A stretch of DNA of 64,000 nucleotides from Betaproteobacteria bacterium (GTDB taxonomy: Bacteria > Pseudomonadota > Gammaproteobacteria > Burkholderiales > SG8-41). The stretch is taken from contig CANHZX010000001.1 of NCBI GenBank assembly GCA_947465215.1, forward strand, positions 1,718 to 65,717. The letters are read 5' to 3'. A model generated the notes under the pieces. The model was given only the letters and a program-made list of their open reading frames with translations, did not search any database and had not been told where the DNA came from. How positions within the stretch are numbered: the stretch's first letter is position 1; the number at the start of each line of letters is the position of its first letter. Of the stretch, positions 9,328-23,149 are shown piece by piece. The position numbers and the translations under genes are program-made.

Positions 9328-11112
9328 CTACTGCGCGACAACTCCTTCATGCATGAACTGCAGCCGCGCCAGATGGGCATACAGTCCGTCGGCGCGCAGC
9401 AGTTCATCATGGGTGCCGGTGGAATGCAGATGACCGCGCTCCAGCACCAGAATACGGTCGGCAGTGCGCACCGTCGCCAGGCGATGCGCAATCACCAGCG
9501 TGGTGCGGCCGCGCGACAGGCTCTCCAGTGCCGCAGCGACCTGACGTTCACTTTCGGCGTCGAGTGAACTGGTCGCTTCATCCAGCAGCAGGATCGGACG
9601 ATCGGCCAGCAGGGCCCGCGCGATCGACAGCCGCTGGCGCTGACCGCCTGACAGGCGCACGCCGCGCTCACCCAGCTCGGTATCCAGACCCTGCGGCAGC
9701 CGTTCGATGAATTCCGTGGCATGCGCCGCCGCACAGGCCGCGCGCACTTCCTCGAGACTCGCGTCGGGACGGCCGAAACGAACGTTCTCGGCGACGGTCG
9801 CCGCGAAAATCACCGGGTCCTGAGACACCAGCGCGACCGCCCGGCGCAGTTGCAACGGTTCGCAATGGCGCAGGTCGGCGCCGTCGATCAGCACACGCCC
9901 GGCCTGCGGATCGTAAAAGCGCAGCAGCAGCGCGAAAATTGTTGTCTTGCCCGCACCCGAAGGACCGACCAGCGCGACGCGCTCCCCCGGATGCACGGAA
10001 AAATCCAGTGTCGACAGCGCCGGCGCGTCGAGCCGCGTCGGATAGGCAAAGCTGACGTTGTCAAAACGAATTTCGCCGCGCGGCTGCGCCGGCAGCTGGA
10101 TACGCGGCTCAACCACCAACAGGGCGGATTTTGCATCGAGCAGTTCCATCAGTCGTTCAGTGGCGCCCGCGGCACGCTGGATCTCGCCCCAGACTTCGGA
10201 CACCGTACCCGCGCCGCTGGCGACAATGCCGGCATAAAACACAAAGGCCGAAAGCTGCCCGGCGGTCAGACGGCCTTCGAGCACATCGTGGCCACCAATC
10301 CACAGGATCACCCCGACGGCGCAGAAGGCGATCAGCATCACCGATGAAATCAGCCAGGCCTTGACGCGCACGCGCTCAACACCCGAGGTGCAGGCTGCCG
10401 CGATCGCGGCATCAAATGTCTCCGCGGTCCGCGGCTCATGACCATAGGCCTGCACGGTGCGGATTTCATGCATCGCCTCATCAACCTGCGCCGACACCTC
10501 AGCGACGCGATCCTGGTTACTCCGCGACAGCCGGCGCACATAACGGCCGAGCAGCAGGATCGGAATCAGCGTCGCCGGCACGCCGAGCACGATCAGGAAA
10601 GCCAGCCGCGGACTGGTGGTGAACAGCAGCACCAGTGCGCCGACCATCATCAGGCCGTTGCGCAGCAGCATCGACAGGCCGAAACCGATGACCTGGCGCA
10701 GCTGCTCGCTGTCGTTGGTGACCCGCGACACGATATCGCCGGTGCGCGTGGCGTCGAAAAACGCCGGCGACAGCGTCAGCACATGCGCAAACACCGCGCG
10801 GCGCAGATCAGCGATCACCCGTTCGCCGGTGCTCATCATCAGGTAAAACCGCGCATAGGTGGATACCGCCAGCACCACGGCAACCGCGATCACGCCGGCC
10901 AGCGCGGCATTAAGCATCTCAGGATTGCCGCTGCCGAAACCGGAATCAATGACAAAACGCAGCCCCTGCCCTAGCGCCAGCACCGATCCGGAAGCAACCA
11001 GCAGCGCAACCAGCGCAATCGCCACGCGGCCGCGGTAAGGCTGCAGGAAACGCATCAGCCGGCGCAGTTGTGTGACATCGCCTTTGACGGCAGCAGTATC
11101 AGCAGGGTTCAA
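9328..11112 (-). CDS. ABC exporter, fused transmembrane and ATP-binding domains (ABCB/MsbA-like half transporter)
   Basis: Six-TM N-terminal half. Walker A GPSGAGKTT, signature LSGGQRQR, Walker B ILLLDEATS. Confidence 0.85.
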   Translation of the reverse strand: MNPADTAAVKGDVTQLRRLMRFLQPYRGRVAIALVALLVASGSVLALGQGLRFVIDSGFGSGNPEMLNAALAGVIAVAVVLAVSTYARFYLMMSTGERVIADLRRAVFAHVLTLSPAFFDATRTGDIVSRVTNDSEQLRQVIGFGLSMLLRNGLMMVGALVLLFTTSPRLAFLIVLGVPATLIPILLLGRYVRRLSRSNQDRVAEVSAQVDEAMHEIRTVQAYGHEPRTAETFDAAIAAACTSGVERVRVKAWLISSVMLIAFCAVGVILWIGGHDVLEGRLTAGQLSAFVFYAGIVASGAGTVSEVWGEIQRAAGATERLMELLDAKSALLVVEPRIQLPAQPRGEIRFDNVSFAYPTRLDAPALSTLDFSVHPGERVALVGPSGAGKTTIFALLLRFYDPQAGRVLIDGADLRHCEPLQLRRAVALVSQDPVIFAATVAENVRFGRPDASLEEVRAACAAAHATEFIERLPQGLDTELGERGVRLSGGQRQRLSIARALLADRPILLLDEATSSLDAESERQVAAALESLSRGRTTLVIAHRLATVRTADRILVLERGHLHSTGTHDELLRADGLYAHLARLQFMHEGVVAQ

Positions 11113-14999: not shown

Positions 15000-16190
15000 A
15001 TGCTGCAGTTCCTGTTGCTGCCGGCCCTGCTGGCGGGACATTCCTTTGCATCGATGGCGGTGCTGGTGTTGCCGGCGGTGGCACCCGCCGTCGCACGCGA
15101 CTACGGCTTCGACCCTTCGCTGATCGGTTACCAGATCAGTCTGGTCAGTCTCGGCATGGTGGTGACGCTGACACTGCTCGGCAGCACTACACGCCGTTAC
15201 GGTGCGGCGCGAACCAACCAACTGGGCCATGCACTGACTGCCACCGGCATGCTGGTGCTGCTGATTCCCTATAGCGCTTTCCTGATCATCGGTTCGCTGG
15301 TCATCGGACTCGGCTACGGCATGATCACGCCTTCAGCTTCGCACCTGCTGATGCGTTACACCCCGCCGCAGCGGCGCAGCACGGTATTCTCAATTCACCA
15401 GACCGGCATTCCCGCCGGCGGCATGCTCGCCGCATTGATTGCACCAGCAGTAACGATCTACGCCGGCTGGCGCTGGGCCGTAGTACTGAGCGCGCTGCTG
15501 CTGTTCGGCGTAGTGCTGCTGATGCAGAGCGGTCGCCGCAGTTGGGATGACGACCGCGACCGAAATGCACCGGTGGTGACCCCCAACCCGCTCGCCGGTG
15601 CCATTGCAATCTGGCAGCAGCGCGAGCTGCGGCTGATCACCATCGCCGGCAGCTGTTTTTCGTGGGCGCAGTTCTGCGCTGCGACTTTTGCCGTGGTCGC
15701 CTGCGTCGAGACCCTGGGCATGAATCTGGTGGTAGCGGGTACGGTGCTGACAGTGGTGCAGATTGCCAGCGCCTCCGGCCGCGTGCTGATCGGCTGGATC
15801 ACCGACCGTGTCGGCGATACCGCGCGCGTGCTGTCATGGAATGCCGGAATACTGACCTTGTTCACGCTGGGCGGCTTCGCCATCCATGACGGAACGCCGC
15901 TGTTGCTGGTCTATCTGCTGTTTGCCGTGCTCGGCGCCACTTCAGGATGCTGGCCCGGCGCCATCCTTGCCGAAGTCGGACGGCTGGCACCGCAGGGTCA
16001 GGTGAGTCTGGCGATCAGCGGCTCTCTGGTGATCACCAATGTCGGCAAATTCATCGGCCCGATCATTTTTGCCAACGTGTATGCGCTGACGCGCAGCTAC
16101 GGCATCGCTTTTGTATCGCTGGTGGTGCCGGCTGCAGTCGCGTTCTATTGCCTCGTTGCCGCAAGACGCGGCAAAACTGGCAGCGCCTAA
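15000..16190 (+). CDS. MFS transporter
   Basis: About 12 hydrophobic segments and 396 aa. Confidence 0.8.
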   Translation: MLQFLLLPALLAGHSFASMAVLVLPAVAPAVARDYGFDPSLIGYQISLVSLGMVVTLTLLGSTTRRYGAARTNQLGHALTATGMLVLLIPYSAFLIIGSLVIGLGYGMITPSASHLLMRYTPPQRRSTVFSIHQTGIPAGGMLAALIAPAVTIYAGWRWAVVLSALLLFGVVLLMQSGRRSWDDDRDRNAPVVTPNPLAGAIAIWQQRELRLITIAGSCFSWAQFCAATFAVVACVETLGMNLVVAGTVLTVVQIASASGRVLIGWITDRVGDTARVLSWNAGILTLFTLGGFAIHDGTPLLLVYLLFAVLGATSGCWPGAILAEVGRLAPQGQVSLAISGSLVITNVGKFIGPIIFANVYALTRSYGIAFVSLVVPAAVAFYCLVAARRGKTGSA

Positions 16191-16621
16191 CCGAGGATCT
16201 GGCTGACCTGTTCCTGGCGCAGCAACTCGTAGACAAAAGCCTCGAGTTCCGGTCCCAGCGCATCGCGCACCGACAGCATACCGATGGGCCAGCCGTCCTT
16301 GACCACCGGAAGGTGACGGAAACGGCCGTCATGCATGATCGCCAGCGCATGCGCAAACGACTGGTCCGGTGAAATGCATTTGGGATTGGCAGTCATCACC
16401 ACACTGAGCGGCGTGGTTTTGCTGTCGAGGCCGGCGGCAACCACGCGGAACAGCGCATCGCGTTCGGTGAACACGCCGACCAGGCGGCCGTTGTCGACCA
16501 CCATCATCGCACCGACGTTGCGCTGCTTCATCTGCCGCGCGGCTTCCGCCACCGTCATGCTGCCCGGTGCGGTGAGCAGCTTCTGTCCGGCAATGATGTC
16601 ATTGATCGTGCGTTCGGCCAT
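16187..16621 (-). CDS. CBS domain-containing protein
   Basis: Tandem CBS pair pattern (MTVAEAARQM...VGAMMVV..GRLVGVFTERD; ...HLPVV.DG.PIGMLSVRD). ATG at 16621 with GGAGG. Confidence 0.8.
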   Translation of the reverse strand: MAERTINDIIAGQKLLTAPGSMTVAEAARQMKQRNVGAMMVVDNGRLVGVFTERDALFRVVAAGLDSKTTPLSVVMTANPKCISPDQSFAHALAIMHDGRFRHLPVVKDGWPIGMLSVRDALGPELEAFVYELLRQEQVSQILG

Positions 16622-16741
16622 ATGAACCTCCGTGCGCTGCAGTCGGGAAAACTTCGGAAACTTCTGAATATTCCGGGACTTCACCGAAACGCCGCGGGCG
16701 GCGTCGCTCCGAAACCATGCTACGCCGCGACCGCGACAGGG

Positions 16742-17251
16742 TCAAACAGTGGAGCGGCCTTCGCGCATGTAAACCGGCAAATCCATCTGCGGCGGCCTGC
16801 AGCCCGGAATGTCATACATCATCTGCGCGACATAACCGCGGTGATAATTGGTATGCATCACCATGTGCAGCAGGATTTCACCGCGCGTCATCGCACCGGG
16901 ATTACCGCCAATCAACATGTAATTAACGGTTTCTCCCAGACTGGCGGTCGTCTGCCGGTCTGCCCAGTCGACATACCAGGCGTCGACCTGCTGCTGCAAC
17001 GTCCACAGCTCGGGCAGCGGCGGATGGTCCTTGGTGTTACGCGCCTCGTAACCGTGATCGCGCCCTTCAAGGTGAGCCTGCCAGATGCGATCGATGACGT
17101 AGATATGGTTCAGCGTGTGCACCATATTCTTGAACAGCGACGGCCGCGGCTTTGCGATTTCCTCGGCGGGTAAGGCGGCGACTGCGTCGAACATCACCTT
17201 GTTTGACCACTGCGCGTAACGGGCCATCATGCTCGCTTCTTTGGCATCCAT
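16742..17251 (-). CDS. DinB family protein
   Basis: Four-helix DinB-like pattern with conserved His residues (HTLNH..., HMVMHTNYHRG). The start is uncertain (17251 or 17230). Confidence 0.7.
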   Translation of the reverse strand: MDAKEASMMARYAQWSNKVMFDAVAALPAEEIAKPRPSLFKNMVHTLNHIYVIDRIWQAHLEGRDHGYEARNTKDHPPLPELWTLQQQVDAWYVDWADRQTTASLGETVNYMLIGGNPGAMTRGEILLHMVMHTNYHRGYVAQMMYDIPGCRPPQMDLPVYMREGRSTV

Positions 17252-17295
17252 ACTCTGGCACTCCGGAATTAATGTTTGATTGGCGCGGCCGGAAA

Positions 17296-17883
17296 TTATG
17301 CGGTGATACCGATCTTGCGCTGCAGGTCGCCGATCACCTGCGTCCACGGGCGCTTGCGCCAGCGCACCCGCTCACCGATCGGTTTGTTCTCGACGTCCGC
17401 ATGCACCTTCATCGCCACAAACACCGGCCCGGGTTTGCCGAGGATTTCCGGCAGCGCCGCTACTGCTGCTTCCAGTTCGGTAAACGAATAGGTGCGCGGA
17501 TACCCGGCGCCCTTCGCCAGCATTTCATAGTTGACGTTCTTGGCGTTCGGCACCGGCTGGCCACCGGTGGTGGCGTAACACTCGTTGTCGAGCATGAAAT
17601 GGTAAAAGTTCGCGGGATTCTGCTCGGCAATGGTCAGCAGGATGCCCAGCCCCATCTGCACATCACCTTCGGAATCAAACAGCACCACCCGTCGCTTGGG
17701 TTGAGCCATCGCCAGACCGAATGCAAATGCCGCGTGTCCGCCCATCGCCGGATCGCCCATCGGCAGATCAAGGTCAGGCTGATCGCTGATCTTCACCCAG
17801 TGTTTGCCGCCGCGTCCGGGCACCACTATGGCGTCGCCGCGATGGGGTTTGAATGCTTTGAGAAAATCTTCAGTACTGAACAT
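17296..17883 (-). CDS. thiamine-diphosphate enzyme beta subunit (ComE / sulfopyruvate-decarboxylase-beta-like, PP-binding half)
   Basis: ThDP motif EGDVQMGLGILLTIAEQNPANFYHFMLDNE (GD-x(~26)-N). 195 aa. Confidence 0.75.
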   Translation of the reverse strand: MFSTEDFLKAFKPHRGDAIVVPGRGGKHWVKISDQPDLDLPMGDPAMGGHAAFAFGLAMAQPKRRVVLFDSEGDVQMGLGILLTIAEQNPANFYHFMLDNECYATTGGQPVPNAKNVNYEMLAKGAGYPRTYSFTELEAAVAALPEILGKPGPVFVAMKVHADVENKPIGERVRWRKRPWTQVIGDLQRKIGITA

Positions 17884-17891
17884 TTGCGCTC

Positions 17892-18410
17892 CTAGCCGTT
17901 GAACTGGTATTCGTCGCCGACGAGCACCGCCACCGGACGTTTTGTTTTTTTCGATTCATTGAAGGCCAGACTGATGCGATCGGCATCAGCGTCGCTTTCG
18001 ACAAGGTAATAGTTGATGCGGAAAGCGTTGAGGAAAGGCTCGGTGTAGACCGACGCGGTATCCGCAGTAGGGGCACCGTGTCGCGTCCAGCCGCGCATGC
18101 CAACGACAAACACCACCGGAATTTCGAGTCCAAAGAGCCAGCCGCGGATGGAATCGCCAGACTCCATCAGACCGGTGTTCTGAATCAGCACAACCGGTAT
18201 AGCACCGCCGACCGCCAGACCCGCCGCCACCGAACAGGCCAGGCCCTCCCGCGGCACTGCCACCAGCGTCAGCGACGGCTCTGCTTTCATCAGCAGGTAA
18301 AGCCAGTTGGTTTCGCTGTCGGGCAGCCATACGACATGGGTGACGCCGTGTTTCTTCAGCTGATTCAGAACAATTTCGGGGCTCAGGTGAGCCTTGGATG
18401 CGTCATTCAT
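17892..18410 (-). CDS. thiamine-diphosphate enzyme alpha subunit (ComD / sulfopyruvate-decarboxylase-alpha-like, pyrimidine-binding half)
   Basis: 172 aa. The REG (catalytic Glu) and IQNTGLMESG blocks are typical of the TPP_enzyme_N half. An 8-nt gap separates it from the beta subunit. Confidence 0.75.
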   Translation of the reverse strand: MNDASKAHLSPEIVLNQLKKHGVTHVVWLPDSETNWLYLLMKAEPSLTLVAVPREGLACSVAAGLAVGGAIPVVLIQNTGLMESGDSIRGWLFGLEIPVVFVVGMRGWTRHGAPTADTASVYTEPFLNAFRINYYLVESDADADRISLAFNESKKTKRPVAVLVGDEYQFNG

Positions 18411-18455
18411 TTCAGTTTCTTTCCATTGATGACATTTTGGATTCGGCCAGCCGGA

Positions 18456-19427
18456 TCAATCGCCCTCCAGCTTGGCTTCAGCGACCACCTTGGTCCACTT
18501 GGCGATTTCGGCTTTGACATGGGAGGCAAACTGATCCGGAGTCTTGGCGGTGATCATCACCCCCTGATCTTCAAACCGCTTGCGCAACACCCCCGCCAGC
18601 ACCTTGTTACCGTCGGCATGCAGCTTGTCGAGGATCGGTTGCGGAACCTTGGACTGTGTACACAAGCCGTACCACCCCGTGACATCGTAGCCCGGCACGC
18701 CGGATTCGGCGAAAGTCGGAACATCCGGCAATTGCGCACTGCGTTCTGCGGAGGTCACCGCGAGCCCGCGCAAGCGACCCGACTTCACTGCGGCGAGCGG
18801 TGCACCGGCGAGATTACCCACCGAGGACTCCATGTGGCCGCTGATCACATCGGCCAGGGCCTGCGACGCGCCCTTATACGGCACGTGGATGATGTTGATC
18901 TTGGTCATCGACTTGAGCAGTTCGATCGACAGGTGCGGCGAGGCGCCGACACCCGACGAGCCGTAGTTCAACTTGCCGGGATTCTTGCGGGCGTAATCGA
19001 TGTACTGCTGTAGATTCCTGATCGGCATCGAAGGATGCACCATGAACAGGTTAGGCACACCGCCGATCCACACCGGAAAGGCAAAATCACCGATCGGATC
19101 GTAAGTCAGGCGTTTGGCAAACCGGGCCGGTGTGACTGAATGCGAGCCGATGTTGCACAACACCATGGTGTAGCCGTCAGGCGGCGCCTTGGCCGTTGCT
19201 TCAGTGGCGATATTGCCTGCGGCGCCGGGCCGGTTCTCCACCAGCACGTTGCCGCCCCACAATTCGCCAAGCGCCTGCGCCATCATCCGCGCCGCGGTAT
19301 CAACACCGCCGCCCGGCGTATATCCGACCAGGATGCGCACCGGTCGCGTACCCGGGTAGTTCTGCGCCTGGACGACGCCGGCCGCGAACAATACAGAAAT
19401 CAGGATGATACGTATGGCGTTTTTCAT
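18456..19427 (-). CDS. Bug family substrate-binding protein (TctC-like)
   Basis: Signal peptide plus the Bug family blocks. RBS GAGGAG. Confidence 0.9.
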   Translation of the reverse strand: MKNAIRIILISVLFAAGVVQAQNYPGTRPVRILVGYTPGGGVDTAARMMAQALGELWGGNVLVENRPGAAGNIATEATAKAPPDGYTMVLCNIGSHSVTPARFAKRLTYDPIGDFAFPVWIGGVPNLFMVHPSMPIRNLQQYIDYARKNPGKLNYGSSGVGASPHLSIELLKSMTKINIIHVPYKGASQALADVISGHMESSVGNLAGAPLAAVKSGRLRGLAVTSAERSAQLPDVPTFAESGVPGYDVTGWYGLCTQSKVPQPILDKLHADGNKVLAGVLRKRFEDQGVMITAKTPDQFASHVKAEIAKWTKVVAEAKLEGD

Positions 19428-19525
19428 CGGCTTCTCCTCATCTGATGGCCCTTGTAATCAGGGCTTGTTGATTTCTCGTTAATTTTGTTGCCGCTGCGTT
19501 ACCGCAAACGGCTTTAACGGGTAAC

Positions 19526-20506
19526 TCAGTCAATCTTGGCACCGGCCTTGCGGATCACTTCCGCCCATTTCGCAGAGTCCGTTCGCACCAGCGACCAGAA
19601 CTCTTCCGGCGTTCCGGTCAGCGGTTCAGAACCCAAAGCCAGAATGCGTTCAGTGGCCGCCGGCGAGTTCACCGCCTTGTTGAGTTTGGTATTGAGCGCA
19701 GCAACGATCGCCTTCGGAGTGCCCGCTGGAACCACCATACCGTGCCAGGTTGTGGCTTCATAACCGGCAACGCCGGATTCAATCAACGTAGGCACTTCGG
19801 GAAATACCGCGGAACGTTTTGCACCGGTTACCGCCAGTCCGCGCACGCGGCCGGCCTTGACGTGACCGCTGGCTGAATTAAGTCCCTCCATCATCAGTTG
19901 CACCTGCCCGGACATCAGATCGGCGATGGCTGCAGGACCACCCTTGTAAGGTACATGCACGATCTGCGTGCCGGTCATGTTCTTCAGCAGTTCGAAACCG
20001 ATGTGACCGGGCGAGCCGTTGCTCGACGACGCATTGAACAGCTTGCCGGGATTCTGCTTCGCGTAGTCGATGACTTCACGCATATTGCGGAACGGTGACT
20101 TCGGACTCGCCAGCACCATCATGTAGCCGGTAATGGTCTGCCCAACGGGCGCGAGTTCGCGCAACGCATCAATCGGCGGTTTGCTCACCAGATGCGGGCC
20201 GATGGCCAGCGAACCGATGGGGGCGTAGCCGATCGTGTAGCCGTCGCGCGAGGCCCGCGCTGTGAGTTCCATACCGAGCTGAAGTGCGCCGCCCGGCCGG
20301 TTATCGACGACCACCTGCTGGCCGAGTTCGCGCGCGAGTTCCGTGGCAACGATGCGCGCAACGTTGTCGGTCGAGGCCCCGACCGCCTGCGGCACGATCA
20401 TGCGCACCGGGCGATCTGGATAGGCGGACCATGCGGGGGCCGCCAGTATCAGCGACAACAGCAACCAGACTTTGCAACCGTTCGGCAATACCGTGGTGCC
20501 CTGCAT
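19526..20506 (-). CDS. Bug family substrate-binding protein (TctC-like)
   Basis: Signal peptide plus the Bug family blocks. RBS GGGGAGG. Confidence 0.9.
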   Translation of the reverse strand: MQGTTVLPNGCKVWLLLSLILAAPAWSAYPDRPVRMIVPQAVGASTDNVARIVATELARELGQQVVVDNRPGGALQLGMELTARASRDGYTIGYAPIGSLAIGPHLVSKPPIDALRELAPVGQTITGYMMVLASPKSPFRNMREVIDYAKQNPGKLFNASSSNGSPGHIGFELLKNMTGTQIVHVPYKGGPAAIADLMSGQVQLMMEGLNSASGHVKAGRVRGLAVTGAKRSAVFPEVPTLIESGVAGYEATTWHGMVVPAGTPKAIVAALNTKLNKAVNSPAATERILALGSEPLTGTPEEFWSLVRTDSAKWAEVIRKAGAKID

Positions 20507-20523
20507 GATCGCCTCCCCGCTGT

Positions 20524-21522
20524 TTAATTACCGCTGGTGATCCCCGCGGCCTTAACCGTCTTGGTCCATTTTGCCAGTTCGGCATGAATGAACTTGCGCG
20601 CTTCTGCGGCGCTGTTGCCCACGGGCACCGCGCCAAGACGGGCAACGCGCTCTTTCACATCCGGCAACGCCAGCAGGCGCACGGATTCGGCATTCAGTTT
20701 TTCGACCACGGGAGCGGGAATTTTCGCCGGCCCCATCATCACCACCCAGGACGTAGATTCATATCCTGGTACAGTCTCGGCAATCGGTATCGCATCCGGC
20801 AGTTCTGCGGAACGCGTCTTCGACGTGATACCCAGCACTTTCAGGCGACCGCCCTTAATGTGCGGCAAGGTTGCGATCAGCGTATCGAACATGACATTGA
20901 CCCGTCCGGCGAACAGGTCGGGGTGCGCCGCAGTACTGCCCTTGTACGGCACATGCAGCATCTTGACGCCGGTCATAAGCTTGAACAGCTCCGCGCTCAT
21001 GTGCGGGGAAGTGCCGGTGCCGCTGGACGCAAATGTCACGCCGTCGGGCTTGGATTTGGCGAGATCGATCAACTCCTTCACCGATTTCACCTGGAACTGG
21101 GGATTGCTCACCAGTACCAGCGGATTGGAAGCGGCGATAGTCACGAAAGTGAAATCGCGATCCGAGTCGTAGGGCAGTTTGTGGATCGCCGGGTTGATGG
21201 CAAAACTCAACGCAACCATGCCCAGCGTATAACCATCGGGCGCGGACTTGGCGACAAGATCGGTACCGATGATGCCGGAGGCGCCGGTGCGGTTGTCGAC
21301 CACCGCGGTCACACCCCAGGTCTGTGCGAATTTGTCGGCAAACAGGCGCGCGATGACGTCCGATGCACCACCCGGCGGGAAGGGCACGATGATGCGGATC
21401 GGCCGCTCGGGATAAGCGGCAGCAGCCGGCAGTGCAAAAACAGATGCGGCCAACAAAACAGCACAGGACATTGCAACGCGCAGGCAAAAGGCCGGCGCGG
21501 TCATGCATGAAACTTGAGACAT
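20524..21522 (-). CDS. Bug family substrate-binding protein (TctC-like)
   Basis: ATG at 21522 with GGAGGGG. Signal ...AVLLAASVFALPAAAA, then the Bug blocks. Confidence 0.9.
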   Translation of the reverse strand: MSQVSCMTAPAFCLRVAMSCAVLLAASVFALPAAAAYPERPIRIIVPFPPGGASDVIARLFADKFAQTWGVTAVVDNRTGASGIIGTDLVAKSAPDGYTLGMVALSFAINPAIHKLPYDSDRDFTFVTIAASNPLVLVSNPQFQVKSVKELIDLAKSKPDGVTFASSGTGTSPHMSAELFKLMTGVKMLHVPYKGSTAAHPDLFAGRVNVMFDTLIATLPHIKGGRLKVLGITSKTRSAELPDAIPIAETVPGYESTSWVVMMGPAKIPAPVVEKLNAESVRLLALPDVKERVARLGAVPVGNSAAEARKFIHAELAKWTKTVKAAGITSGN

Positions 21523-21790
21523 GTCATCCCCTCCGATGAAGGCGGCATTGTGGCGCATGTGGCACGACCGTGGAAGCCTTGCGCACCACCGTCCGTATGG
21601 TGTTACGCCGGACAATCGGCTTTTAAAAAATACTTTTTTATCAACATCTTATAAACGTAACTCAAAAACGCCGACTCACCGCCGGAAGATCTTCGCAATG
21701 CCATAGCGCCCAAATTGGCTATGCGCCAGAATATCGCCCTCGCGCCACGCGCGAAAAAAACCGAAATCACGCTATCAATTGGGGGAGTAC

Positions 21791-23149
21791 ATGAGAGCAG
21801 TCCAGCAGGGCAGCAAAGACCGCGCCGCCATCCTCGCATCGCTGCCGATGCGGGCGGACGAAGATCCGTTTGTCGTCGCTATCGGCGGTTTCTACCGCCG
21901 CTGGTTCAACCTGATCGACGACCTGCAGTTGCTGATCGACACCGTCGCGAAAATCAAAAGCACAGAGGACGAAGACTGGGTCCCGGTGTGGAGCGCGGTC
22001 GGCGCTGAGTACGAAAAGAAAGGCGACGCCCTGCTCGCACGCAAGGACAAGACCGGCGCACGTCAGGCCTATGTGCAGGCCAAAACCTATTACAGCCTCG
22101 CACGTTTCCCGTCACCGTATTGGTCGGGATCGCCGATCTGCCCGCCGACGATGAGCCCGATGAAGGCCCAGTCGTATGAAGACTATCTGCGCTGCTATGA
22201 GAAGTCTGCTGCTCTGCTTCCCGATCCACCGGAAACCATTGTCGTCACCAAAAACGGCATGAAGGCGACGGGTTTTCTGCGCCTGCCGAAAGGCGCATCG
22301 AAATCGAACAAGGTCCCGGCCGTGCTGGTGATGTGCGGCGCCGACATGTACAAGGAAGACCGCGAAAAATACGCTGAAGGCGCGCTGTCCCAGGGCATGG
22401 CTGCGCTGGTCGTTGATGCACCGGGGACAGGGCAAACCACATTCCCGCATGCGCCGGAATCCGTCGTAGCCTGGCAGGCCGCGCTGGATGTTCTGCAGAA
22501 ACGTCCCGAGATCGACGGCAACCGCATCGGCGCCTTCGGCGTCAGCCGCGGCGGCCTGTGGGTGATCCGCCTCGCCGCTAATGACCCGCGCATCAAGGGT
22601 CTGATCGCCTGTGCCCCGGGAGGCGCCGGTTACTGGGGTTCACCGGAAGAACGTGCCGAATGGCGCGCTGCGGCCTACGAACGCGCCAAGACCAACTGGT
22701 TCGGTCCGCGGGGCACGCGCCCGCCGTTAAAAGAAGTGACTGAAGAAGACCAACGCAAGGATTTCCTGCGCTGGTCGCTGAAAGACCAGGATCTGCTGAA
22801 GAACCTGACCATGCCGATGTACCTGGTCAACGGCAAGATTGACCACCTGACCCCCATCGGCAATCTCTACATGCTGCTGGAGTCCGGCCCGGCCGACGGC
22901 CGCGTCGCCCGTGTTTATCCGGATGACGGCCATATCGCCGCGAAGAACGAACGAGAGTGGGGCCCGGCATCGTGGGCCTGGCTGCGCGGCGTGCTGACCA
23001 AGGGCATGAAACCGGCAAAACCAGCTGTGAAACGAGTGGTCAGCTTCACCATCAGCAAACCGGCCAAAGCCAAGGTCAAGGCCAAGACCAAGACCAAGCC
23101 TGTTGCCACGAAAAAAACCGTCAAGAAAAAGGTGGTGGCAAAGAAGTAA
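21791..23149 (+). CDS. alpha/beta hydrolase (FrsA/DUF1100-like esterase) with lysine/alanine/proline-rich C-terminal tail
   Basis: Nucleophile elbow GVSRGG and a late DDGH. The C-terminus is KPAKPAVK...SKPAKAKVKAKTKTKPVATKKTVKKKVVAKK. ATG at 21791 follows GGGGGAG (an in-frame TTG at 21779 is the alternative). Confidence 0.75.
   Translation: MRAVQQGSKDRAAILASLPMRADEDPFVVAIGGFYRRWFNLIDDLQLLIDTVAKIKSTEDEDWVPVWSAVGAEYEKKGDALLARKDKTGARQAYVQAKTYYSLARFPSPYWSGSPICPPTMSPMKAQSYEDYLRCYEKSAALLPDPPETIVVTKNGMKATGFLRLPKGASKSNKVPAVLVMCGADMYKEDREKYAEGALSQGMAALVVDAPGTGQTTFPHAPESVVAWQAALDVLQKRPEIDGNRIGAFGVSRGGLWVIRLAANDPRIKGLIACAPGGAGYWGSPEERAEWRAAAYERAKTNWFGPRGTRPPLKEVTEEDQRKDFLRWSLKDQDLLKNLTMPMYLVNGKIDHLTPIGNLYMLLESGPADGRVARVYPDDGHIAAKNEREWGPASWAWLRGVLTKGMKPAKPAVKRVVSFTISKPAKAKVKAKTKTKPVATKKTVKKKVVAKK

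Follow-up and report, generated by a model that had tools for sequence, protein, structure and literature searches.

Comparative analysis of a 64,000-nucleotide window of contig CANHZX010000001.1, assigned to a Betaproteobacteria bacterium of the order Burkholderiales and taken here as the whole stretch of DNA under study, identified two adjacent genes, designated alpha and beta, that encode the separate pyrimidine-binding (PYR) and diphosphate-binding (PP) halves of a thiamine diphosphate (ThDP) enzyme. On balance, the evidence favors a heteromeric ThDP decarboxylase of an anionic 2-oxo acid, which would belong to a distinct clade, be encoded by a self-contained cassette and differ from the curated sulfopyruvate (ComDE) and phosphonopyruvate decarboxylases. 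Judged from its sequences, the pair is part of a widespread and strongly conserved clade without a characterised member, and constitutes a variant of a known enzyme type rather than a new kind of system.

The presence of separate, adjacent genes for a PYR (alpha) and a PP (beta) subunit corresponds to the two-subunit type of ThDP enzyme lacking the middle TH3 domain. An initial annotation of this DNA had read the two genes as the PYR and PP halves of a ComDE-type enzyme, and this assignment was borne out by Pfam (Table 1) and by matches to RhiE and RhiF, the subunits of the two-subunit phosphonopyruvate decarboxylase (RhiEF) of rhizocticin biosynthesis (PMC12141560). Of 80 related loci taken from species-representative genomes, 73 carry alpha immediately upstream of beta, and most of the others end at a contig edge, revealing an association far beyond chance. 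A stop codon terminates the alpha frame before the beta start in all 71 measurable pairs, which span the Burkholderiales, Chloroflexota, Rokubacteria, Acidobacteria and Alphaproteobacteria. The gap between both genes ranges from 1 to 272 nt in these pairs and is mostly of 8-21 nt; in the locus analysed here it measures 8 nt, and the alpha stop codon (TAG) falls inside the AGGAG Shine-Dalgarno sequence of beta. With beta as the query, 4,435 proteins were retrieved at E <= 0.001; the top 120 matches listed are 68-95% identical and 193-204 aa long, except for one of 175 aa. Fused alpha-beta forms, searched for among longer proteins, amounted to 3-4 singletons of 372-378 aa. The possibility that both reading frames derive from a single gene broken by a frameshift, which the initial annotation had singled out for checking, is hence ruled out by the stop codon present in every measurable pair, the uniform size of beta, the recurrent adjacency of both genes and the scarcity of fusions, and the split is ancestral. 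The rare one-member fusions P0124, P0125 and P0126 (372-378 aa, with 58-65% identity to beta) could be either genuine or the product of frameshifts in the assembly.

Family placement was based on the cut-offs of curated hidden Markov models. The nearest NCBIfam models were ComD for alpha, and ComE together with phosphonopyruvate decarboxylase for beta, but all scores fell far below the respective cut-offs: 71 bits for alpha against TIGR03845 (ComD; cut-off 147.95), and 86.9 and 85.3 bits for beta against TIGR03846 (ComE; 221.5) and TIGR03297 (phosphonopyruvate decarboxylase; 312.5). The same was observed for 37 diverse betas of the family, with best E-values of 3.9e-29 (ComE model) and 2.7e-30 (TIGR03297) and none near the cut-off. 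By these models, therefore, the pair is not ComDE or phosphonopyruvate decarboxylase in the curated equivalog sense, and the doubt that the initial annotation had expressed over sulfopyruvate as the substrate was justified, also because no sulfonate or phosphonate family was present in the top-25 tallies of the neighbours of 63 diverse loci (see below). The closest sequence matches of known structure were instead RhiE for alpha (PDB 9iz3_A; E 3e-10, or 2e-16 with a family profile) and RhiF for beta (E 6e-12, or 3e-19 with the profile). The AlphaFold2 model of beta (pLDDT 89.8) likewise presented RhiF (9iz4_B) and AzcC (9u8q_G) as its best folds, followed by benzoylformate decarboxylase.

Clade members were detected in about 45 of the 61 genomes available for this Burkholderiales family, and also in SAR202/Dehalococcoidia, Rokubacteria, Acidobacteria and Alphaproteobacteria. 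Identity between Burkholderiales sequences and those of Chloroflexota, Rokubacteria, Acidobacteria and Alphaproteobacteria is 65-80% for alpha and 55-70% for beta, and the clade as a whole spans 55-95% across phyla. Clustering at 50% identity yielded 51 representatives at E <= 1e-30 and 870 at E <= 1e-10. Source labels of these proteins vary between 'sulfopyruvate decarboxylase', 'phosphonopyruvate decarboxylase' and 'acetolactate synthase-like'.

Residues predicted to serve ThDP catalysis are invariant in both subunits, with a variation at the putative metal site. The alpha subunit contains a putative cofactor-activating Glu within R54-E55-G56 that is invariant in 35 family alphas and aligns with the Glu of the 'RED' segment of RhiE; other invariant stretches of alpha include WLPDSETN, QNTG, GDS and RGW. 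In beta, the invariant stretches include GDPAMGGH, D70-S-E72-G-D74, D99-N100 and TTGGQPVPNA. Within the PF02775 match, the second half of the PP-domain motif GDG-x(24-27)-NN is in place as D99-N100. An HMMER alignment to RhiF (PDB 9iz3_B) sets the canonical GDG Asp position at E72 of the invariant D70-S71-E72-G73-D74, so that the Asp slot is occupied by an invariant Glu followed by an invariant D74. The Asp is kept at this position in AzcC and in a paralog encoded in contig C7 of the same genome. The invariant DSEGD, set against the GDG of other ThDP enzymes, thus points to a Glu at the position of the Mg-ligand Asp. The metal motif described earlier as GD-x(~26)-N is consequently present as a variant in which the predicted second ligand (N100) was correctly located, but the first position falls on E72 and not on D74.

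Table 1. Genes of the locus, with positions in the 64,000-nucleotide window and supporting domain matches.
Gene product	Position	Strand	Length	Domain match
Alpha subunit, PYR half of predicted two-subunit ThDP enzyme	17892..18410	-	172 aa	PF02776 TPP_enzyme_N, E 4e-7
Beta subunit, PP half of predicted two-subunit ThDP enzyme	17296..17883	-	195 aa	PF02775 TPP_enzyme_C, E 9e-15
DinB-family four-helix-bundle protein	16742..17251	-	169 aa	PF05163, E 3e-23
CBS-pair protein, last gene of co-directional run	16187..16684	-	165 aa	PF00571, two CBS stretches, E 7e-24
TctC/Bug periplasmic binding protein 1, nearest alpha	18456..19427	-		PF03401, E 2e-60
TctC/Bug binding protein 2	19526..20506	-		PF03401, E 8e-67
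TctC/Bug binding protein 3 (longest open reading frame starts at TTG 21615)	20524..21522	-		PF03401, E 3e-65
FrsA-like alpha/beta hydrolase, divergent syntenic neighbour	21779..23149	+		PF06500, E 4e-16
MFS transporter, convergent syntenic neighbour	15000..16190	+		PF07690, E 2e-43

The open reading frame list and Pfam confirmed the gene coordinates, the 8-nt gap and the arrangement of three Bug genes before and a DinB gene after the pair given in the initial annotation. The intergenic gaps from Bug3 to the CBS gene are of 17, 98, 45, 8, 44 and 57 nt, and a scan of the locus for promoters and terminators gave no signal above chance, terminator-like sites included. The host genome is a 3.03 Mb metagenome-assembled genome (MAG) of 301 contigs, and related DNA originates from lake and freshwater metagenomes. 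The CBS gene lies 3' of DinB in 17 close relatives, the FrsA-like gene is next to the Bug genes in 13 close loci, and the MFS gene is retained in 16; the latter two are also present in congeners without alpha and beta. The FrsA-like hydrolase is regarded here as no more than a syntenic neighbour.

The comparison with congeners outlined the alpha-beta pair as a discrete unit of this locus. Three congeneric genomes (G009, G053 and G025; loci L121, L122 and L123) present the gene order FrsA, Bug-Bug-(Bug)-Bug-DinB-CBS and MFS-CMD without alpha and beta, with a gap of 31-76 nt between Bug1 and DinB and nothing between them. One of these genomes (G025) encodes a distant-type pair elsewhere. The retention of the Bug-DinB-CBS operon without the pair indicates that the Bug and DinB genes are independent of the decarboxylase, and that alpha-beta constitutes a two-gene indel in this older operon. 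The pair therefore behaves as a cassette of two genes that stands by itself. No direct repeats were seen by eye at the cassette junctions in five junction sequences.

The three Bug proteins are full-length, matching PF03401 with 205-226 bits over 272-274 of its 274 positions. The genome encodes at least 181 TctC/Bug genes, about 60 per Mb, nine or more of which lie in the window, and the adjacency of Bug genes is thus little informative. The suggestion in the initial annotation that one of the three Bug proteins may deliver the substrate is weakened by this abundance and by the congeners that keep the Bug genes without the pair. Comparison with PDB structures provided no ligand hints for these three proteins, which are all at a similar distance from the solved Bug structures, among them adipate-, glutamate- and terephthalate-binding proteins.

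PF05163 has a single match in the genome, the DinB gene of this locus (83 bits; gathering threshold 23), whose product contains five His residues (H45, H49, H129, H133 and H137) conserved in 25 orthologs, which are predicted to be metal ligands. Searches with DinB against the PDB and the ESM Atlas returned generic matches only. A DinB gene adjoins alpha and beta in 27 of the 80 loci, following beta in 17 close relatives and preceding alpha in 10 more distant Burkholderiales. The occurrence of two gene orders suggests some selective link between DinB and the pair, albeit not an obligate one. Of the 45 genomes with the pair, 40 contain a DinB ortholog, compared to 9 of the 16 that lack the pair, and in most genera these orthologs map to other contigs. 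Given its presence in these nine genomes, and in place in congeners lacking alpha and beta, DinB was rejected as an obligate partner. The DinB tallies, as well as those for Xsc below, take in an unpublished genome (G007) with a paralog-level match only, on which no conclusion rests.

To characterise the genomic context of the family beyond close relatives, Pfam families were tallied in 63 non-close loci, covering the two nearest genes at each flank of the pair. The most recurrent were TctC (15), DinB (10), response regulators (8), class-III aminotransferases (5), Zn-dependent alcohol dehydrogenases (Zn-ADH; 5), HpcH aldolases (4), PrpD (4), aconitase (3) and PdxA (3). Among these, TctC, class-III aminotransferase, HpcH, aconitase, PrpD and PdxA are families of carboxylate metabolism. 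No sulfonate- or phosphonate-specific family was present in the top-25 Pfam tallies of these loci, nor were coenzyme M genes, sulfolactate or cysteate genes or xsc; the only TauD/TfdA entries (2 members) belong to a broad family. The survey of ortholog neighbourhoods proposed in the initial annotation thus yielded no consistent link to sulfonates or phosphonates.

Several individual contexts couple orthologs or paralogs of the pair to aldehyde-converting enzymes. In plasmid p53363 of Bradyrhizobium guangxiense CCBAU 53363, a cultured strain, the ortholog (L118:11474-14039; X268_RS35505 and X268_RS35500; 58% identity) presents a beta stop codon that overlaps by 4 nt the start of a succinate semialdehyde dehydrogenase-type aldehyde dehydrogenase (ALDH; X268_RS35495), in a region that also encodes an amidase, FAD oxidoreductases, aminotransferases, an ABC transporter, PxpA, a PrpD-family protein and an Ldh-family oxidoreductase. 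In the Dehalococcoidia, a Zn-ADH located directly 3' of beta (L061:10616-11743) passes the TIGR03451 model for S-(hydroxymethyl)mycothiol dehydrogenase (657 bits; cut-off 513). A Dehalococcoidia DinB_2 protein (L060:10617-11192), encoded adjacent or nearby, resembles mycothiol transferase (96 bits; cut-off 170). Mycothiol synthesis is not known from this phylum.

A second split ThDP pair was identified in contig C7 of the same genome (G000), with alpha at L116:9242-9781 and beta at 9783-10382. Its beta is 37% identical to the one described here, contains a canonical GDG and scores 143 bits against ComE, compared to 86.5 bits for the beta of this locus; both are below the cut-off. The surrounding region (L116:4362-11825) comprises an ALDH downstream and an FMN-dependent 2-hydroxyacid dehydrogenase about 4 kb upstream, with CoA-transferase III, acyl-CoA dehydrogenase and alpha/beta hydrolase genes also upstream, in a layout that resembles a mandelate pathway. 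Paralog-level pairs in Ruegeria and Deinococcus also sit with a transaminase or an ALDH. In two other loci (L086 and L038), the gene for a full-length three-domain ThDP enzyme is flanked by a pair of oppositely oriented beta-like genes, all in a stretch of about 4 kb.

Contigs assembled from four lake metatranscriptome libraries match parts of the CBS, DinB, alpha, Bug and FrsA genes and the 3' end of beta with 95-100% identity. One of these contigs bridges the DinB-CBS junction and, in one run, two contigs overlapping by 16 nt tile the beta-DinB junction. As assembled contigs, among which DNA carry-over is possible and for which uncovered parts are uninformative, these matches lend weak support to transcription of the locus.

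Decarboxylation of an anionic 2-oxo acid emerges as the most likely activity because the nearest characterised relatives use 3-sulfo- or 3-phosphonopyruvate, because the neighbouring genes handle carboxylates and because several orthologs and paralogs are coupled to enzymes that oxidise or reduce aldehydes. According to this hypothesis, alpha and beta would form a heteromer that depends on ThDP and Mg and has no middle domain, like ComDE, RhiEF and AzcBC, with an active site at the interface between the alpha PYR and beta PP domains. As suggested by the alignments, Glu55 of alpha would activate the cofactor, and Glu72/Asp74 and Asn100 of beta would hold the Mg-diphosphate. The enzyme may then remove CO2 non-oxidatively from a 2-oxo acid bearing a second anionic group, probably a carboxylate, to yield an aldehyde, with a cyclic 2-imino acid as a possible alternative substrate, and the aldehyde would be passed to whatever redox enzyme the host provides. 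The domain content, split, sequence conservation, metal motif, scores below the equivalog cut-offs, variable neighbourhoods and cassette indel are direct observations, and the subunit assembly, the decarboxylase chemistry and the substrate class are predictions.

A number of observations weigh against this proposal. The neighbourhood is heterogeneous and points to no particular substrate. Just 1 of the 80 MAG loci has an ALDH within 10 kb, and the case for an aldehyde-forming role hence draws on few informative contexts. The replacement of Asp by Glu at a predicted Mg ligand is unusual, and the 65-80% identity of alpha across phyla is atypical for a niche catabolic enzyme. Moreover, ThDP enzymes of the same fold can act as carboligases or lyases, and the genome encodes an Xsc protein, so that a sink for sulfoacetaldehyde exists.

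A broader proposal would hold that the clade constitutes a previously undescribed functional class among two-subunit ThDP enzymes, with a Glu-for-Asp metal site, disseminated among phyla as a stand-alone cassette. The substrate of such an enzyme would be a common but hitherto overlooked metabolite, for instance oxaloacetate, 2-oxoglutarate or a cyclic imino acid undergoing alpha-decarboxylation, and the aldehyde or imine product would go to DinB-fold and thiol-dependent dehydrogenase partners. We regard this scenario as possible, though rather unlikely.

The proposal of a catabolic sulfopyruvate decarboxylase posits that a Bug protein imports sulfolactate or cysteate, which would be converted to sulfopyruvate and then, by alpha-beta, to sulfoacetaldehyde, for Xsc to generate acetyl phosphate and sulfite. 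The top NCBIfam models are those of ComD and ComE, and Roseovarius nubinhibens encodes a TTT-type sulfolactate transporter beside ComDE. The absence of xsc noted in the initial annotation holds for the window, but a genuine xsc is present elsewhere in the genome (G000:C130, L117:2383-4251; 893 bits, cut-off 676), unlinked to the pair. Its neighbours are a LacI-type regulator and a fused FAD-oxidase/Fe-S protein, rather than alpha and beta, and no pta or sulfite exporter was found in the 8-kb stretch around it. Xsc is above the cut-off in 43 of the 61 family genomes, and its presence in about 34 of the 45 genomes with the pair and in 11 of the 16 without it reveals no association between xsc and alpha-beta. 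In addition, every family member tested scores below half of the equivalog cut-offs, the C7 pair outscores this pair for ComE, and sulfolactate lyase, sulfite exporter and Ldh_2 do not appear in the top-25 tallies of the 63 loci. A role in sulfopyruvate catabolism is therefore considered quite unlikely.

A decarboxylase of a cyclic alpha-imino acid or a heteroaromatic 2-carboxylate, akin to AzcB/AzcC and LumK/LumL, can also be contemplated. AzcBC (9u8q) is the second-best relative by both structure and sequence, LumK/LumL decarboxylates a quinoxaline carboxylate as a two-subunit ThDP enzyme (PMC12746152), and the FAD oxidoreductases, amidase, PxpA and Ldh-family oxidoreductase of the Bradyrhizobium locus fit the chemistry of imino or cyclic amino acids. 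AzcC nonetheless matches the family profile less closely (E 8e-9) than RhiF does (E 3e-19), and heterocycle-degrading genes were not seen in most of the 63 neighbourhoods, making a dedicated enzyme of this kind likewise quite improbable.

The association with DinB-fold genes could alternatively reflect a ThDP carboligase or lyase acting at a C-C bond next to a carbonyl, which might process a small reactive aldehyde in concert with detoxification proteins that depend on thiols, such as a DinB-fold transferase and a formaldehyde-dehydrogenase-type alcohol dehydrogenase. Consistent with this idea are the adjacency of DinB in two gene orders, a DinB_2/MST-like gene within about 5 kb in six Dehalococcoidia loci (directly after beta in two of them), the TIGR03451-level Zn-ADH directly 3' of beta in that group and the presence of engineered formolases of the benzoylformate decarboxylase fold among the structural neighbours of the beta model. 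This resemblance is, however, generic for the fold, and ligation chemistry has no direct support. Furthermore, DinB is encoded in relatives without the pair, lies elsewhere in most genomes that have it, and stays in place in congeners lacking alpha and beta. Carboligase or lyase activity is accordingly deemed distinctly improbable. A phosphonopyruvate decarboxylase of phosphonate biosynthesis is extremely unlikely, even though TIGR03297 is among the best matches and RhiEF is the closest solved structure, since beta falls far short of that model's cut-off, no phosphoenolpyruvate (PEP) mutase scores above the cut-off in the genome (best 148 bits; cut-off 319.55) and the PEP mutase family is not among the top-25 neighbour tallies of the 63 loci.

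Two-subunit ThDP decarboxylases were called rare in 2025, by a paper that lists them only from coenzyme M and rhizocticin biosynthesis besides its own LumK/LumL (PMC12746152), and the PDB entry for AzcBC, released in 2026, adds one more. The presence of the clade described here in most genomes of a Burkholderiales family and in several other phyla counters this view. Clade members are likely mislabelled as ComDE or phosphonopyruvate decarboxylase in environmental genomes; if these labels are indeed wrong, organosulfonate and phosphonate pathways are overcalled in such genomes. Identification of the substrate would give function to thousands of genes, and the clade would test whether Glu can stand in for the canonical Mg-binding Asp of ThDP enzymes. 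The B. guangxiense p53363 ortholog provides a system tractable for genetics. Literature searches on 9U8Q, on AzcB/AzcC and on sulfopyruvate decarboxylase with DinB found nothing relevant.

Among known systems, RhiE/RhiF of Bacillus subtilis ATCC 6633 (PDB 9IZ3/9IZ4) is the closest relative of the alpha-beta pair. Both consist of two small PYR and PP subunits without a middle domain, and RhiE/RhiF provides the best match in sequence and in fold (TM 0.73-0.78), sharing with the clade the TGGQ that follows the DN motif and the cofactor Glu. Identity is nevertheless just 21-24%, and RhiF contains a canonical GDGS where the clade presents SEGD. The 'AVEHD' segment of RhiE aligns with a non-conserved stretch of alpha, which has instead its own invariant RG-TRHG and QNTG-MESGDS-RGW, and the clade lacks a PEP mutase context. 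ComD/ComE (TIGR03845/TIGR03846) are similar in their two-gene architecture and subunit sizes, but differ from the clade by the scores reported above and by the lack of any coenzyme M or sulfonate context across the 63 loci. The paralogous C7 pair has the same architecture, and differs in its canonical GDG and in its ALDH and mandelate-like surroundings. The Streptomyces AzcB/AzcC (PDB 9U8Q-9U8S, with 9U8Q titled TPP-dependent alpha-imino acid decarboxylase) is also a two-subunit ThDP enzyme of the same fold, with AzcC as the second-best PDB relative of beta, yet it is more distant than RhiF and contains a canonical DTDGS motif. LumK/LumL, likened here by its published description (PMC12746152), is again a two-subunit ThDP decarboxylase of the same fold. 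Together, AzcBC and LumKL indicate that this architecture accommodates substrates beyond 3-sulfo- and 3-phosphonopyruvate.

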